A program made the translations under genes and the position numbers. This document shows, one piece after another, positions 4,259-59,286 of a stretch of 64,000 nt of DNA. The notes under the pieces are model-generated. The model saw only the letters and a list, made by a program, of their open reading frames with translations, did no database searches and was not told the origin of the DNA. Source of the stretch: Candidatus Latescibacterota bacterium (lineage in GTDB: Bacteria; Latescibacterota; UBA2968); assembly GCA_965198115.1 (NCBI GenBank), contig OZ240241.1, forward strand, positions 2,368,001 through 2,432,000, read 5' to 3'. Position 1 is the stretch's first letter; every line of letters starts with the position of its first letter.

Positions 4259-5359
4259 TCAGGCCGCGCTTCCCATCCTTTTGATCAGAGGATGGCGCCG
4301 ATCCTCCAGGGGAAGATAGGCGCGTGCTTTCGTGAAATGTGACTCGTAGGCGGCGCTCACGCACTGGATCGACGTGATCGCATTGGGTCCTCCCAGCTCG
4401 GGCGTTTCACCCGCCTGAAGCGACTCCACCATATGTTTCACGCTCCAGATCGGATGACCGCTGCCCCACGTCTCTCCGCCGATGACGAACGCCGCCGGGT
4501 CGATTTCAACGCACTCCCAAGCCGCACCTCCCTCCACGAAGAAAGCATCCGAGGGGCAATACCACATCTCCCACCGCTCGATCTTGATCTGGCCCATCGT
4601 ACCCAGTAAGTGAGGACTGTGAAGATAGCCATTCAGTTCCTCTCGCCGATACAACTCCACAACACCCGATACGCCGTTCGGTCCACCCAGGTGAACCAGC
4701 ATCGTGTCGCCGGCGACCATTCCGTTGTCCCGACGGTCGGTTGTGCACAGTTCGCTGCTGTGAACGATGTCCTCGACCCCAACCTCGTGACCTTCATAGG
4801 TCATCTGGGCGTGAACCCATTCGACACCCCGGGCGAAGAAATCCATCTCGTCGAAGTAGTGGACACCCATCTCCATGAGCTCGAACCCTGCCGCACGCCC
4901 TTTACCCACTTCGCGGATCGAACGGAACTGACCGATGCGTCCTTCCTCGATCCACTCGCGTACAAGACGATACAGCGGGCTGAACCGGTACTGATGGCTG
5001 ACCGCCAGCTCGACCTCCGCTTCCGCACAGGCGGCGATCATCGTGTCGGCCGTCTCCAAATCGACCGACAGAGGCTTCTCGCACAAGACGTTGATCCCTG
5101 CCCTCGCGGCGGCGATCGTCACGGGCGCGTGAAGCGGTGCGTGAGTACAGACACTCACGAGATCCAAGTTGGCCGAGGCAAACATCTCCTCGTAGTCCGT
5201 GTATCTGTTGGATACGCCGTGTTCGTCGGCCCGCTTGTCGAGCGCCTCCTGATTGATATCGCAGATCGCTGTGAAGTCGACGCTACTCAGGCAAGAATAA
5301 GCCGATGCGTGGTACCTGCTGATCCCCCCACAACCAACGATTCCCACTTTTAATGACAA
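4259..5359 (-). CDS. Gfo/Idh/MocA family oxidoreductase
   Basis: KVGIVGCGGI, VLCEKP, EMGVHYFD; probable TTG start at 5359 with GGAGG RBS. Confidence 0.9.
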   Translation of the reverse strand: MSLKVGIVGCGGISRYHASAYSCLSSVDFTAICDINQEALDKRADEHGVSNRYTDYEEMFASANLDLVSVCTHAPLHAPVTIAAARAGINVLCEKPLSVDLETADTMIAACAEAEVELAVSHQYRFSPLYRLVREWIEEGRIGQFRSIREVGKGRAAGFELMEMGVHYFDEMDFFARGVEWVHAQMTYEGHEVGVEDIVHSSELCTTDRRDNGMVAGDTMLVHLGGPNGVSGVVELYRREELNGYLHSPHLLGTMGQIKIERWEMWYCPSDAFFVEGGAAWECVEIDPAAFVIGGETWGSGHPIWSVKHMVESLQAGETPELGGPNAITSIQCVSAAYESHFTKARAYLPLEDRRHPLIKRMGSAA

Positions 5360-55409: not shown

Positions 55410-56285
55410 ATGCCGCCTATCATTCCTGATCCAACGCACAAGCTGTCGGCTGAACAGCAGTACGAGTTCGACGTCAACGGCTATATCATCCTGAGGAATC
55501 ACTACGATGCGGACACCGTGGCGCAACTTCACGAAGGTATCGACGAACTGCAGGCCATTCCCGTCGACTACGAAACCTACAGGAAGATAGGCGTCGCCAG
55601 CTACTATCTCGCACCAGCGATGAAGGATCCGGCACACGACTTCTGGAACGGCAAACACCCGGAAGCCAGCCAGGAGACTGGAGGCGTCTGGAAGGTTGAA
55701 CACGCGATCTGCGGCACGGACAAATTCGACGTCATTGTACGCGATCCCATCCTCGAGGACATCCACTCAGCCCTCGCCTGGAGCACCCTATTCATCTCCG
55801 CCACCTACTACATCGAGAAGATCGGGCCTGCTCCACCCGGCGGGCTCCACAACGGCGGCTCACCCCCCGACAGACACATCTACTACGCCTACGATCGGGC
55901 GAATCAACAATTCAATTGCTGCAGCACAAAAAGCGTCGTCATTCTTTCCGACATGTCAAAAGTCGAGAACGGCCCTTTCGCAGCCGTACCGGGCAGCCAC
56001 AAGGCGAACTTCGCTTTTCCCTTCGACAAGTCAGATCCCGCGAAGAATCCAATGGCTGTGCCCGTTCTTGCGGAGCCCGGGGATGTGATCATTTTCAGCG
56101 AGGGCATGACACACGGCGCCTATGCCGTGACCAACAACACGGTTCGCCGGTCCGTCTTTTTCTGCTACATGCCCTCCATCAACCGCGACAACCTGCCGCA
56201 CCAGCGCATGTCCATGTATCCCGATCACGTGCTCGATCGTCTCAGCGACATGTCGCACATCCTGACATCTTCCGGATATATCTGA
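55410..56285 (+). CDS. PhyH-fold protein (HNG motif)
   Basis: EQQYEFDVNGY, GLHNGG, GPFAAVPGSHK, PGDVIIFSEGMTHG, RRSVFFCY. Confidence 0.88.
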   Translation: MPPIIPDPTHKLSAEQQYEFDVNGYIILRNHYDADTVAQLHEGIDELQAIPVDYETYRKIGVASYYLAPAMKDPAHDFWNGKHPEASQETGGVWKVEHAICGTDKFDVIVRDPILEDIHSALAWSTLFISATYYIEKIGPAPPGGLHNGGSPPDRHIYYAYDRANQQFNCCSTKSVVILSDMSKVENGPFAAVPGSHKANFAFPFDKSDPAKNPMAVPVLAEPGDVIIFSEGMTHGAYAVTNNTVRRSVFFCYMPSINRDNLPHQRMSMYPDHVLDRLSDMSHILTSSGYI

Positions 56286-56445
56286 TTGTTCCCGGGGACG
56301 GCGCCGTAGCGGCTGCTGGCGCTTCAGGCAGAAAGAGTTCTCTGAGTTTTGCGCTGGAAGAACCTCGAGGTTTCTTCGCTGACAAAGGAAGGGCAGAATT
56401 ACCAATTTAGAAAGGGAAATATCCGGTTAACAAAGCACATTTGAC

Positions 56446-56619
56446 CTAATGGCACACATCAGAACGGTGGTCTTTCGTCCTTCTTTGGGCCGGCCGCCGT
56501 TTTTTTGCCTTCCGCTTCTTCGGCTTGAACCTCGGGGGCGGCTCAGTCGTCAATGCCGTCCGCAATACCTCCACGGGGTCCAGTTCCTGCTTGTCCTTGT
56601 CCTTGTCCTTCTTCTTCAC
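56446..56619 (-). CDS. 57-aa basic small protein inside IS1595
   Basis: GTG with GGTAGG RBS; MKKKDKDKDKQELDPVEVLRTALTTEPPPRFKPKKRKAKKRR... Confidence 0.5.
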   Translation of the reverse strand: MKKKDKDKDKQELDPVEVLRTALTTEPPPRFKPKKRKAKKRRPAQRRTKDHRSDVCH

Positions 56620-56644
56620 TACCTACCCCCGCTCACGGGAAAAG

Positions 56645-56674
56645 TTGACATGAATACAGACATGGTGTTATACT
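56645..56674 (+). promoter_or_regulatory. Near-consensus sigma70 promoter upstream of the HTH ORF and tRNA
   Basis: TTGACA-18 nt-TATACT with extended -10 TG. Confidence 0.65.
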
Positions 56675-56760
56675 CTGGTCAGAGGCTATTCTACAACTCA
56701 ACTCCCCTCTCACATCCCGTAGTCTATTCCGTTCCATGTCCTCACATTTTGAGGTGGACC

Positions 56761-57234
56761 ATGCCTGACGATCCTTTCCTTGAAACTATGCGGGCAGAAG
56801 AGCGCAAGCTGCTTAAACGAGCTGCGATTCTGCGCAAAACCATCTTGGAATATGAAATCGAGAGCAACGGCGAAGCGACGGAACAAAAGGCGCCAACCAA
56901 AAAGCTCAGAGTCCAGCGGCTGAAGAAGCGACAGCTGCCCAAACCATCGGGTTTGAAATCCGTCGATGGTAAACGGACCCTCAGTCCCCTAACCGCTGGA
57001 ATCCTTGCGGCTCTTGAAGAACTGGAACACCCGTCGGCTCTCGCGGTCATTTACGAGGTGCTCAAGAGAAAAGGCGTCTCGATGCTCGGTGACACTGACT
57101 CGGAGAAGCGCGCCAAACTGGCGTCAAGACTCTCGAATCTGAAATATCAGAAAACGCATGTCTATAGGACGGACAAGAAATTGTGGGGCCTCGAAGCGTG
57201 GCGCCACAACGAAAACGGCCCCTCAAACCGATAG
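56761..57234 (+). CDS. Coiled-coil plus winged-helix (HARE-HTH-like) protein, IS passenger
   Basis: GAGGTGG RBS; ILAALEELEHP....IYEVLKRKG....LASRLS......YRTDKKLWGLEAW. Confidence 0.65.
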   Translation: MPDDPFLETMRAEERKLLKRAAILRKTILEYEIESNGEATEQKAPTKKLRVQRLKKRQLPKPSGLKSVDGKRTLSPLTAGILAALEELEHPSALAVIYEVLKRKGVSMLGDTDSEKRAKLASRLSNLKYQKTHVYRTDKKLWGLEAWRHNENGPSNR

Positions 57235-57265
57235 CGCGGTTCAGGAGCCGTTTTCAAACCAGAGC

Positions 57266-57341
57266 GGGAGGGTCGTCTAACTGGTTAGGATAGTCGGGTT
57301 TGCACCGACTGGACTGGGTTCGAGTCCTGGCCCTCCCGCCA
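57266..57341 (+). tRNA. Non-canonical tRNA, anticodon UUG (Gln-like), encoded CCA
   Basis: GGGAGGG/CCCTCCC acceptor, GTCT-AACTGGTTA-GGAT D arm, GTCGG-GTTTGCA-CCGAC anticodon arm, CTGGG-TTCGAGT-CCTGG T arm, GCCA; atypical G32, C37 and A48. Confidence 0.8.
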
Positions 57342-57551
57342 AACACCAACCCTACACGCGAACTGAGAAGCCCACGTAGACATAGAATAACTATCGTGTC
57401 AATCAAAGTCAAGAAAGGATAACCGCCAATGAAATAAAGTACTTATAAAACATGCACTTAGAATCTGAGAATGACGCCCGGCGATCACCTTGAACCCGTC
57501 GCGTGAAGTGAGACGGAACTAAGTCTCAGCTTGAAAGGAGGGTGGTGCCCT

Positions 57552-57662
57552 ATGGCTTGCCGTAAGGTGCGTTCTGGCACGCGGCGTGGCCGGAGGACCG
57601 TCCGGGTTGATGGCCACACGCGTAGGAAGCCCAAGCCCATTCCCGGCCGTAGGTGCCGGTAG
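57552..57662 (+). CDS. 36-aa Arg-rich micropeptide
   Basis: AAAGGAGG RBS; MACRKVRSGTRRGRRTVRVDGHTRRKPKPIPGRRCR. Confidence 0.55.
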   Translation: MACRKVRSGTRRGRRTVRVDGHTRRKPKPIPGRRCR

Positions 57663-57714
57663 TGTAGGCCCGTAGGACAATTCCTGCCGGGCGCCATTCT
57701 CAAAAAAGAGTGAA

Positions 57715-57854
57715 GCACCACCCGGACTGCGTAACCACAACCCTTTCCGATAGGAGGACGACATGAAACACCGGTGTCGTTCACCACCCAGGGTCGTTCG
57801 TTGTAGTCTGAGACACCCGTCAATGTGATCCCTGACAAATGCAGCGGGTGGTGC
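57715..57854. ncRNA. Putative structured RNA domain
   Basis: Closed by a perfect 10-bp helix gcaccacccg/cgggtggtgc, with nested ggactgc/gtagtct, accct/agggt, gacgaca/tgtcgtt and gtca/tgac pairings. Confidence 0.4.
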
Positions 57855-57883
57855 GTCACTTCTTTTTCTTCTTCCTCCGTTTC

Positions 57884-58822
57884 TTAGGCCGCCGCTTTAG
57901 GTCTTGCAAGCATCAGCCTCTTGCCCTCGGATTGCGCAATCGCCAGATCGCGACGCGCACCATCGGAGAGCTTGCGCGTGTTCCACCGGAACGTGGCCTC
58001 GGCCAGATACCGGTGCATGTGGTGACGGCTGTACGAATGATGGATGCCATAGTGCCCGCGTTTGACGAGCGAGATAAAGCACTCGGCTAAGTTCGTCGTG
58101 ACCTTCAGGCCGTCCAACGCTTCGCGCACGTACTGTCCGTCCTTGTGTCGTATGACTTCGTGGCGCTGGCGCTGACTGACCTTTCGATAACCGGACCATT
58201 CGTCGGTAACGACCGTCGCGTCCTTGCGAACGTGACGCTTGATGTTCTCCGTGAGTGTCCTTTGGTCTACCCTGTCAACGTGAGTGGCAACGGCGCGTCC
58301 ATCACGCTCAACGAGGACGGCAACAGGGGACTTCAGTGTATTACGACCGAAGCGCGATTTGTCACCCGTCTTCTGGCTTTGGTGTAGGTTCTTCGCATTG
58401 GCGCCGATGTAGGCTTCATCGCCCTCAACAACACCGCCTAAGTTTCCCACTGTCTGATTCATCGCCCACCTGACACGATGCGCCAAGTGTAGCGCCGTCT
58501 CGTATGATCCCAACCCCAACTCCCTCTGGAGCTGTTTGGCGGAAACGCCCTTCTTGCTACTGCTCATAAGATGAAAGGCCGTCGCCCACTTGCGCAGAGA
58601 AATTTTTGACCGCTCCATTACCGTGTTGACTGTGACCGTGTAACTCTGGCGACAGTCGCCGTTGTTGCACTGAATTAAGCCGGGACGGTGGCTCTTGCCC
58701 TGTAAGCGTGTGAAGTTCATACTGCCACAGTGAGGGCACACCGGGCCATCCGGCCATCTGATTCTCTCAAAGTGCGCTCGGGCTTCTTCTTCGGTCATGC
58801 TGGCGATCTCAAGCAGGGTCAT
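57884..58822 (-). CDS. IS1595-family transposase
   Basis: RWPDGPVCPHC zinc ribbon, KKGVSAKQLQRELG, VEGDEAYIG, TDEWSGY, TTNLAE, RYLAE..FRWN. Confidence 0.95.
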   Translation of the reverse strand: MTLLEIASMTEEEARAHFERIRWPDGPVCPHCGSMNFTRLQGKSHRPGLIQCNNGDCRQSYTVTVNTVMERSKISLRKWATAFHLMSSSKKGVSAKQLQRELGLGSYETALHLAHRVRWAMNQTVGNLGGVVEGDEAYIGANAKNLHQSQKTGDKSRFGRNTLKSPVAVLVERDGRAVATHVDRVDQRTLTENIKRHVRKDATVVTDEWSGYRKVSQRQRHEVIRHKDGQYVREALDGLKVTTNLAECFISLVKRGHYGIHHSYSRHHMHRYLAEATFRWNTRKLSDGARRDLAIAQSEGKRLMLARPKAAA

Positions 58823-58868
58823 TGGTCAGTCTCCGGTTTCGGCGCCTTATTTCTCTGTAACTAACTCT

Positions 58869-58897
58869 AAGATAACTAATTAACCCTGCTTTGTCAA
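58869..58897 (-). promoter_or_regulatory. Transposase promoter with -35 inside the IR
   Basis: TTGACA-17 nt-TATCTT on the minus strand. Confidence 0.55.
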
Positions 58898-59286
58898 CCG
58901 GATACTTCCCTTTAGAAAATTGGAAAGCGGGGATCAGCACCCGTTCGATCCGATGTATGATGCAGAACCGATCACGCTTCACGTAGCTGGATCAGCAGTA
59001 ACGATGGGTTTCGGGCAACCACAAGCGTTGCATAGGCGTGGGCTCCCTCGGGGTCGCATGAAATGGAGAACTCACCGATGTGAGTAGCCCCTCTGGTTCG
59101 ACGCCAGCAGGGGCATTTCTCTTTGGGCATCCGGATCTCGCTGACGACCTGCACCAGGGGCTACAACGCTCTACATCTCGCTTGGAGTTGATCTCTTTGC
59201 GCGATCAAGATACGGAAGGCGACGGATGATGGAGCTCGATGAAATCGGCGGGTCCTCCGTCTGACGTCAGAACAGGAGCAACTGCG

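Follow-up and report, generated by a model that had tools for sequence, protein, structure and literature searches.

Insertion sequences of the IS1595 family are reportedly able to act as transporter insertion sequences (tIS), a form attributed to Siguier, Gagnevin and Chandler (in 2009), and the passengers described for them are said to be protein genes. Here we analyze an intact IS1595 element of about 2.5 kb, at 56414-58910 of a 64,000-nucleotide stretch of a Candidatus Latescibacterota genome (contig OZ240241.1, positions 2,368,001 to 2,432,000; hereafter the window), whose passenger is centered on an irregular tRNA gene with the anticodon UUG. Irregular tRNA genes recur inside related IS1595 elements, and in relatives whose tRNA has a UGG or AGG anticodon, a rare Pro codon that matches the anticodon occupies two fixed positions of the element's own transposase gene. 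New here are the Gln-anticodon type, an estimate of the frequency of such tRNAs and a controlled test of the codon match. Searches of the open-access literature turned up no description of an IS1595 that carries irregular tRNAs, nor of a transposon whose tRNA matches its own transposase.

Only a few tRNA families are known by which bacteria encode mistranslation, and what this serves is not settled. The allo-tRNAs of Mukai et al. 2017 (PMC5389517) show a mismatch between body and anticodon or an odd structure, have 8/4 or 9/3 acceptor branches and mostly Ser or Ala identity, and lie near transposon-related and toxin-antitoxin genes. Some of them cause mistranslation or death of E. coli; others are aminoacylated without being used. 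The tRNA-ProX/ProRSx system of Streptomyces (PMC11415595) consists of encoded mistranslating tRNAs of dual identity, with a Pro body, A33/A34 and a synthetase gene of their own.

Our comparison rests on transposase loci gathered from GTDB genomes, metagenomes and viral contigs, with up to 80 loci per scan. Out of 218 loci, 97 passed a filter for terminal inverted repeats (IRs) and 96 were non-redundant; tRNA labels were assigned by hand. An irregular tRNA lies inside the IRs of 16 of the 96, the window's element included, and eight more loci bear such a tRNA without a passing IR pair (L022, L050, L098, L099, L372, L378, L130 and L350). A first-pass annotation of this DNA had read the passenger as an RNA-centered cargo, as opposed to captured DNA that homologous elements lack. 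The recurrence of irregular tRNAs in relatives, often beside a winged helix-turn-helix (wHTH) gene, bears out the former. As a control, none of 34 loci with an ordinary tRNA-Leu(UAG) had an IS1595 transposase. On a quick tree of the transposases the 16 tRNA-bearing rows lie dispersed and need 14 changes, a count reached or undercut in 120 of 500 shuffles; this suggests a passenger that was repeatedly gained or lost. Of the 16, 14 fall within one clade of 40 rows that includes the window.

Through the transposase we reached 14 tRNAs with a Leu-type body, none of which has a Leu anticodon (UGG in 10, AGG in 2, UUA and CGA in 1 each). We aligned 24 Leu-body RNAs, 12 reached via the transposase and 12 via a pattern that contains the anticodon. 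The alignment is invariant at G1, A73, A15:U48 and A20a, all listed as determinants of leucyl-tRNA synthetase (PMC9976931). Stem covariation is 0.763, versus 0.209 in shuffled and at most 0.166 in slid alignments, with two-sided changes at 17 of 20 pairs. Together, the invariant positions and the covarying stems argue that these Leu-body tRNAs are under selection.

The other bodies are diverse. A Ser-type body (G73, long arm) with a UGG anticodon lies at L358:1889-1976 (+), inside an IS1595 with CCA at the linker Pro discussed below; L378 has a short-arm UGG tRNA. Arg bodies with A20 and odd anticodons occur in L017 and L350 and, beside other elements, in L129/L275 and L132. Seven loci contain what we call mini-D-arm RNAs, of 71-72 nt, in which a G3·U70 acceptor is combined with a miniature D-arm and an anticodon arm that is long. 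Read by eye, their anticodons are GUG (L004), UAG (L017), UUC (L130), UCC (L135 and L152) and UGC (L356, an Ala body with its cognate anticodon); that of L364 is not readable. The L004 RNA (L004:1120-1191, +) belongs to a second IS1595 of the host genome (G000, ~7,722,620); it is 72 nt long, directly follows a wHTH gene, has G3·U70 and an anticodon loop CUGUGGA (GUG, His), and was missed by ARAGORN. In L364 a wHTH gene is followed by a Leu-body UUA tRNA (4660-4746, +), which would read ochre, and then by a mini-D-arm Ala RNA (4857-4928, +); the transposase of this element ends in TAG, not TAA. Some relatives are visibly decayed (the second tRNA of L017, the anticodon stem of L113). A variant layout, with a Leu/UGG tRNA upstream of the transposase beside a small divergent HTH gene, is seen at L022:222-311 and L099:4606-4698.

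Pattern searches reached beyond the elements. One tRNA pattern returned 75 loci, mostly phage tRNA-like RNAs with unrelated anticodon arms; eight of the 75 have an IS1595 transposase within 3.5 kb, and the clean Leu/Pro tRNAs without IS1595 lie in mixed contexts. A search with the mini-D-arm pattern returned only a known case, one of the seven. Many phage RNAs in viral contigs (L211-L285) combine D- and T-arms of Leu type with long unrelated sequence in the place of the anticodon arm, and several of these recur across many contigs. At L156/L158:9937-10039 a Leu-type body with an extended anticodon arm and a UGC loop lies outside the element called there.

In 8 of the 16 elements (the window, L004, L017, L059, L109, L358, L364 and L366) the tRNA has as its same-strand neighbor a wHTH gene of 130-190 codons, whose product has an N-terminal helix and a C-terminal winged helix, in line with the co-occurrence that the first-pass annotation had proposed to look for; the pairing is also present in L098 and L372. 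The nearest element with DNA that shares the window's layout is L017, of the same class (transposases 51-53% identical). Both L017 and L004 have the transposase gene convergent with the irregular tRNA or tRNAs (two in L017), then the wHTH gene in tRNA orientation, then a short ORF. The wHTH and irregular tRNA cassette also occurs without IS1595, beside a tyrosine integrase (L216:3012-3537, -), before an IS1-like transposase (L132:7773-8491, -) and at L281, and just outside an IS1595 at L275:2889-3595 (+).

A pointer to the function comes from the codons of the transposase; counts exclude one long-branch row (G6209). A conserved Pro in the linker from the HTH to the catalytic domain is encoded by CCA in 11 of the 11 UGG elements that have it (the twelfth has Leu), versus 4 of the 57 with Pro among the 79 elements without a detected tRNA. 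A C-terminal Pro is encoded by CCA in 7 of 7 UGG elements versus 0 of 18 without a tRNA, and the two AGG elements, which are sisters, have CCU at both sites. At four control columns of conserved Pro, UGG elements use CCA in only 3 of 37 cases. Composition does not explain this, since the G+C content at third positions of the coupled transposase genes is 0.63-0.71 where measured. All three sister contrasts run as predicted (L053 versus L059/L366, L371 versus L377, L157 versus L358). The relatives' tRNA would put Leu or Ser at a conserved Pro, or cause a pause there. It does not repair the enzyme, since the proline is the family residue and Pro at Leu-conserved columns was found in 0 of 12 Leu/Pro elements. 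Slippery-site frameshifting at the fixed CCA is also unlikely, because the base after it varies. The codon evidence from relatives points to the element's own transposase as a target, rather than to addiction or anti-phage defense, and of the functions first suggested for the passenger it favors translation modulation.

In the window, the element and its parts are arranged as follows.

56406..56413, no strand: left copy of the 8-bp target duplication TTTAGAAA (from the sequence)
56414..56437, no strand: terminal IR distal to the transposase start (24 bp, 22/24)
56446..56619, - strand: 57-aa basic open reading frame (ORF), a weak to moderate match to the short basic ORF of the IS group
56645..56674, + strand: sigma70-type promoter-like site TTGACA-18-TG-TATACT (by consensus match only, 11/12)
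56761..57234, + strand: HARE-HTH-like protein of 157 aa with an N-terminal helix, a basic linker and a C-terminal winged helix at residues 76-151 (AlphaFold, profile)
57211..57255, no strand: strong hairpin between the wHTH and tRNA genes with flanking A/T runs, a candidate bidirectional terminator or attenuator (z -4.87)
57266..57341, + strand: irregular tRNA gene, anticodon UUG, CCA encoded (ARAGORN, Rfam, inspection by hand)
57384..57412, - strand: weak promoter-like site (9/12; one expected by chance), directed antisense through the tRNA toward the hairpin; candidate antisense RNA of ~165 nt
57552..57662, + strand: Arg-rich 36-aa ORF with a Shine-Dalgarno-like (SD-like) sequence, no homologue found
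57702..57867, + strand: long-range stem with 23-nt arms that enclose hairpins and a 21-aa ORF (fold z)
57763-57828, + strand: the 21-aa ORF, after an SD-like sequence, inside the long stem
57884..58822, - strand: IS1595-family transposase of 312 aa, zinc ribbon, HTH and DDE domain (Pfam, DDE triad)
58887..58910, no strand: terminal IR upstream of the transposase, containing the -35 of its promoter-like site
58897-58869, - strand: promoter-like site for the transposase, -35 inside the IR
58911..58918, no strand: right copy of the target duplication TTTAGAAA (from the sequence)

The transposase matches PF12762 (DDE_Tnp_IS1595, E 3e-36) and PF12760 (Zn_ribbon_IS1595, E 8e-14), its triad D135, D207, E247 is intact and its CAA codons are 148, 187 and 297. 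As a single-protein query it had no match among viral contigs. The 24-bp IRs (22 of 24 identical) and the perfect 8-bp duplication on both sides are as first annotated and as expected for IS1595 (IRs of ~25 bp, 8-bp duplication), and the ~1.45 kb of passenger DNA from the distal IR to the transposase stop makes the element a tIS. That the whole 2.5 kb inserted recently was also proposed; the duplication speaks for this, and the word "recent" rests on it, as no joint across the empty site was seen in two sequencing runs. A short-read contig matches 56228-59300 without differences; it is probably from the same sample and hence confirms the assembly only.

The window's tRNA, which lies convergent with the transposase, has 76 nt and is called Gln(UUG) by ARAGORN. 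By family criteria it is a tRNA: its cloverleaf scores 42.1 bits against Rfam RF00005 (gathering threshold 29), and it has the T-loop, the GG of the D-loop and the CCA end. All four stems pair fully (fold z -2.7), and the odd bases are at identity and loop positions, not in stems. Its acceptor reads G1:C72, G2:C71, G3:C70, G73; the D-arm has G10·U25, U11:A24, U13·G22 and U20a; the variable loop has 4 nt and no position 47, with A15 opposite A48; and the anticodon loop is G32-U-UUG-C37-A38. Among 346 tRNAs counted from the genome and the loci, G32 occurs in 6 and C37 in 3; C37-A38 recurs in two other irregular tRNAs borne by ISs (L152, L130). The Gln identity set comprises U1:A72, G2:C71, G3:C70, G73, G10, YUG, A37 and U38 (PMC9976931, Table 1), and the window's tRNA departs from a canonical bacterial tRNA-Gln in having G1:C72, C37 and A38 in place of U1:A72, A37 and U38. 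The host's three tRNA-Gln genes, two of them UUG, lack G1:C72 and also differ at U20a. Nor is it a canonical tRNA-Glu. From the Glu set (G1:C72, U2:A71, U11:A24, U13·G22:A46, no 47, U34 U35 C36 A37; PMC9976931) it has G1:C72, U11:A24, U13·G22 and no 47, and lacks U2:A71, A46, C36 and A37. By body similarity it scores highest with Asp (50), with Gln (49) nearly tied. An 8/4 allo-tRNA fold was rejected, the fold being 7/5 with C49:G65. A15·A48 has been reported in the mistranslating tRNA-ProX (PMC11415595). By its sequence, then, this is a Gln-anticodon type and a new addition to the irregular tRNAs of IS1595.

The winged helix of the first-pass annotation holds up, and its promoter does so as a consensus match. 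The site at 56645-56674 matches 11 of 12 consensus positions and has the TG; 4 sites of that grade were found, versus 0.9 expected. AlphaFold with a 13-row alignment gives a winged helix (three helices and a beta wing) at residues 76-151, with pLDDT mostly above 90 over the domain; folded without an alignment the protein reaches pLDDT 56. With VIA-align the model scores Z 8-9.7, with a best root-mean-square deviation of 1.7 over 68 residues, and many winged helices tie, among them those of Fur, SelB, H1/H5 and Z-alpha, so that the protein could bind either DNA or RNA. At E≤0.001 Foldseek returned nothing; the highest-ranked rows were ZBP1 Z-alpha and RNA polymerase delta (ranks 2-3, E 0.27). 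Single-sequence searches found only the protein itself, and there was no direct Pfam match at E≤1, and thus none to PF05066 at its cut-off. A profile of the 13 rows found 11 non-self proteins, 6 of which have PF05066; these are mostly relatives of one row, and one of the PF05066-linked proteins aligns to the window's protein at 28% over 65 residues. Across 41 related genomes, a HARE-HTH search yielded a single hit, which plays no part in the argument. The HARE-HTH (PF05066) affiliation would therefore run through family members only.

How could such a cassette work? Our tentative proposal, for which we would claim a good deal less than an even chance, is that IS1595 elements use private, identity-swapped tRNAs to give a chosen rare codon a new reading at fixed sites in the transposase that they encode, as a translation switch gated by the wHTH protein. 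The repertoire would comprise Leu/Pro, Ser/Pro and Leu/ochre types, mini-D-arm Ala tRNAs and Arg bodies, to which the window would add a Gln-anticodon version that changes Gln to Glu in hosts with GatCAB. For the window's tRNA taken by itself, the idea of a codon-selective recoding device that misreads or slows the rarer Gln codon CAA, with its own transposase mRNA as the likely target, comes close to an even call, if slightly short of it. The 56645 promoter would drive a transcript through the wHTH gene, whose product likely represses that promoter, and the hairpin would limit read-through into the tRNA. An antisense RNA from the weak site at 57412-57384, a site expected at chance level, could silence the tRNA, as it faces a hairpin (57211-57255) that is terminator-like on the - strand. 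RNase P would process the transcript at the G1:C72 stem, the CCA being already encoded. Where the host has a non-discriminating GluRS and GatCAB, Glu would be attached to the tRNA and escape amidation, giving Glu at CAA/CAG. No amidation is predicted because G1:C72 and U20a are reported amidotransferase antideterminants; they block GatCAB for Asn, and the same is predicted for Gln (PMC1635274). Since CAA makes up 21% of Gln codons and CCA 12% of Pro codons in the host, genes with many A-ending codons, such as the transposase and other foreign DNA, would bear most of the effect. Mistranslation as predicted from identity rules is clear-cut on paper for the Leu- and Ser-body relatives and host-dependent for the window's tRNA.

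A number of observations weigh against this proposal. First, the window's transposase shows no codon coupling. It lacks the linker Pro, and its three CAA codons equal the mean of tRNA-free elements; Q187 (CAA), at a column of A/G/S and present also in two of the three closest proteins (64-74% identity), is only a hint. Second, kinship among the elements inflates the Fisher significance of the codon match, so that p-values are overstated, and no codon-match rule emerged for the mini-D-arm tRNAs. Third, the tRNA keeps much of the Gln set (G73, G2:C71, G3:C70, G10, U34, U35, G36), so a mismatch between body and anticodon is not plain. A search of viral contigs, plasmids, phages and 124 other genomes of the phylum yielded no second tRNA of its type, and hence selection on its odd bases cannot be demonstrated. 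Fourth, glnS, gltX and gatB are all in the host genome, and in an alignment the host GluRS has Arg where the 2CFO enzyme has Gly, an Arg that we take to mark discriminating enzymes. With GlnRS present and GluRS probably discriminating, this host is unlikely to insert Glu; the tRNA would receive Gln only weakly or stay uncharged, and the cassette may be muted here. Fifth, no clear operator was found at the wHTH promoter, 8 of the 16 tRNA elements lack a similar wHTH gene and L142 has the wHTH gene without a detected tRNA. The enrichment of wHTH genes with tRNAs is an impression and not a statistic, because the family is too divergent for a leave-one-out profile (E 1e-7 to 43).

One could also argue that the tRNA is a toxic or signalling RNA that acts on the whole cell, in addiction or abortive anti-phage defense, restrained by the wHTH protein, the hairpin and perhaps the antisense RNA. 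Once released, it would mistranslate or, uncharged, stall ribosomes at CAA. A repressor-like gene and a strong hairpin do lie directly upstream of the tRNA, and the weak antisense promoter faces a terminator on the - strand, although such a promoter is expected by chance. Most of the anticodons found read codons that end in A or U, of which several are rare in the host, and the cassette beside integrases or an IS1-like gene at L216, L132 and L281 does without IS1595. When induced, allo-tRNAs killed E. coli, and toxin-antitoxin genes are found in their vicinity (PMC5389517). A general toxin, however, does not account for the fixation of the matched codon at two sites of the transposase. We consider this explanation unlikely on its own terms; it and recoding can both hold.

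It is likewise improbable, in our view, that the window's copy is a drifting relic, that is, a once-functional tRNA-Gln or irregular tRNA that accumulated substitutions and is carried passively. Such a history would fit the absence of homologues of this tRNA, the rarity of G32 and C37, the missing codon coupling and the decay visible in L017 and L113. On the other hand, the four stems are fully paired, the CCA is encoded and the tRNA reaches 42 bits in Rfam; the changes are at identity and loop positions, the element, its ORFs and its promoter are intact, and C37-A38 is shared with two other IS-borne tRNAs. Least credible is a cognate back-up tRNA-Gln, charged by GlnRS and reading CAA correctly, whose altered loop evades anticodon nucleases or which supplies a rare codon: most GlnRS determinants are kept, glnS is in the host and one mini-D-arm relative (L356) is cognate, but U1:A72, A37 and U38 are lost, the host already has two tRNA-Gln(UUG), and a supply role does not explain why nearly all relatives are mismatched.

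Not every part of the passenger belongs to the tRNA cassette. The first-pass annotation had described a compact module convergent with the transposase, and every feature it listed is present, the 57-aa ORF among them. A similar short basic ORF, however, is found by profile at E<0.01 in 58-59 of the 96 elements, with or without a tRNA (0 in a reversed control); the window's ORF scores E 1.8 in the first round and 0.0007-0.003 later. We therefore place the 57-aa ORF, which resembles it, with the IS group and not with the cargo. For the Arg-rich peptide, the 21-aa ORF and the 3' stem we found no counterpart, be it in the collected IS1595 loci, in Pfam, PHROGs or Rfam, or in Atlas (0.85, where recognition is low; a lead only). 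The long stem folds with z -5.1 on the + strand and -2.8 on the - strand. Just past the transposase stop (57870-57900, -), another frame reads as a Lys/Arg run like the ends of the short basic ORF, and this is the right arm of the long stem; hence, part of the stem may be a remnant. In L364 and L372 a small basic protein with the motif Y-I-T-L-x-x-G-x-x-L-Y-A...G-L-K-A-F, conserved in both, lies between the wHTH gene and the short basic ORF.

The element is present in one copy in a host genome of 8.4 Mb with nine further IS1595-like transposase loci; its G+C content is 54.6%, that of the genome 59.1%. The insertion point is intergenic, 120 bp downstream of a gene of the phytanoyl-CoA dioxygenase family (55410-56285, +), and no gene seems disrupted. 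Other IS1595 elements of the genome (G000:C1 near 5671143, 6209234, 4808906, 7655133 and 1186339) have perfect duplications and passengers of their own (a DNA methyltransferase-like gene pair, small HTH and membrane ORFs, proline-rich micro-ORFs); one of them is present in two copies. At G000:C1:2870558-2872531 an array of 20 tRNA genes, including Ile(UAU), stands apart from the housekeeping set and resembles a cryptic or mobile tRNA operon.

The irregular tRNAs considered here ride small self-contained transposons, and their Pro-anticodon members show a candidate target in the sequence. If recoding is what they do, transposons would have a so far undescribed means of regulating themselves or of taxing foreign genes. 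The window alone is a smaller gain, as it adds a new tRNA type without itself showing the coupling. The mini-D-arm Ala tRNAs and the ochre-reading Leu tRNA of its relatives are natural parts for genetic-code engineering.

How does the locus compare with what has been described? The wHTH protein is like HARE-HTH domains (PF05066, of the type at the N-terminus of RNA polymerase delta) in its predicted fold and a C-terminal W-x-L-x-x-W wing; it differs in standing alone, in its N-terminal helix and in having no Pfam match of its own. Unlike allo-tRNAs with their 8/4 or 9/3 branches, the window's tRNA is 7/5 with a short variable loop, and the accessible part of PMC5389517 mentions no IS1595, wHTH partner or transposase codon match. 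With tRNA-ProX it shares the rare A15·A48 pair. That system is defined by a Pro body with a co-encoded synthetase; the window's element has no synthetase ORF and its tRNA no C1:G72. Moreover, tRNA-ProX inserts Pro, while the relatives of the window's element target Pro codons instead. The element itself is closest to the tIS of IS1595, with which it shares the PF12760/PF12762 transposase, the ~24-bp IRs, the 8-bp duplication and a passenger inside the IRs. Where those are said to carry protein genes, the passenger that recurs here is a gene for an irregular tRNA, with an anticodon that in relatives finds its match in fixed codons of the transposase.

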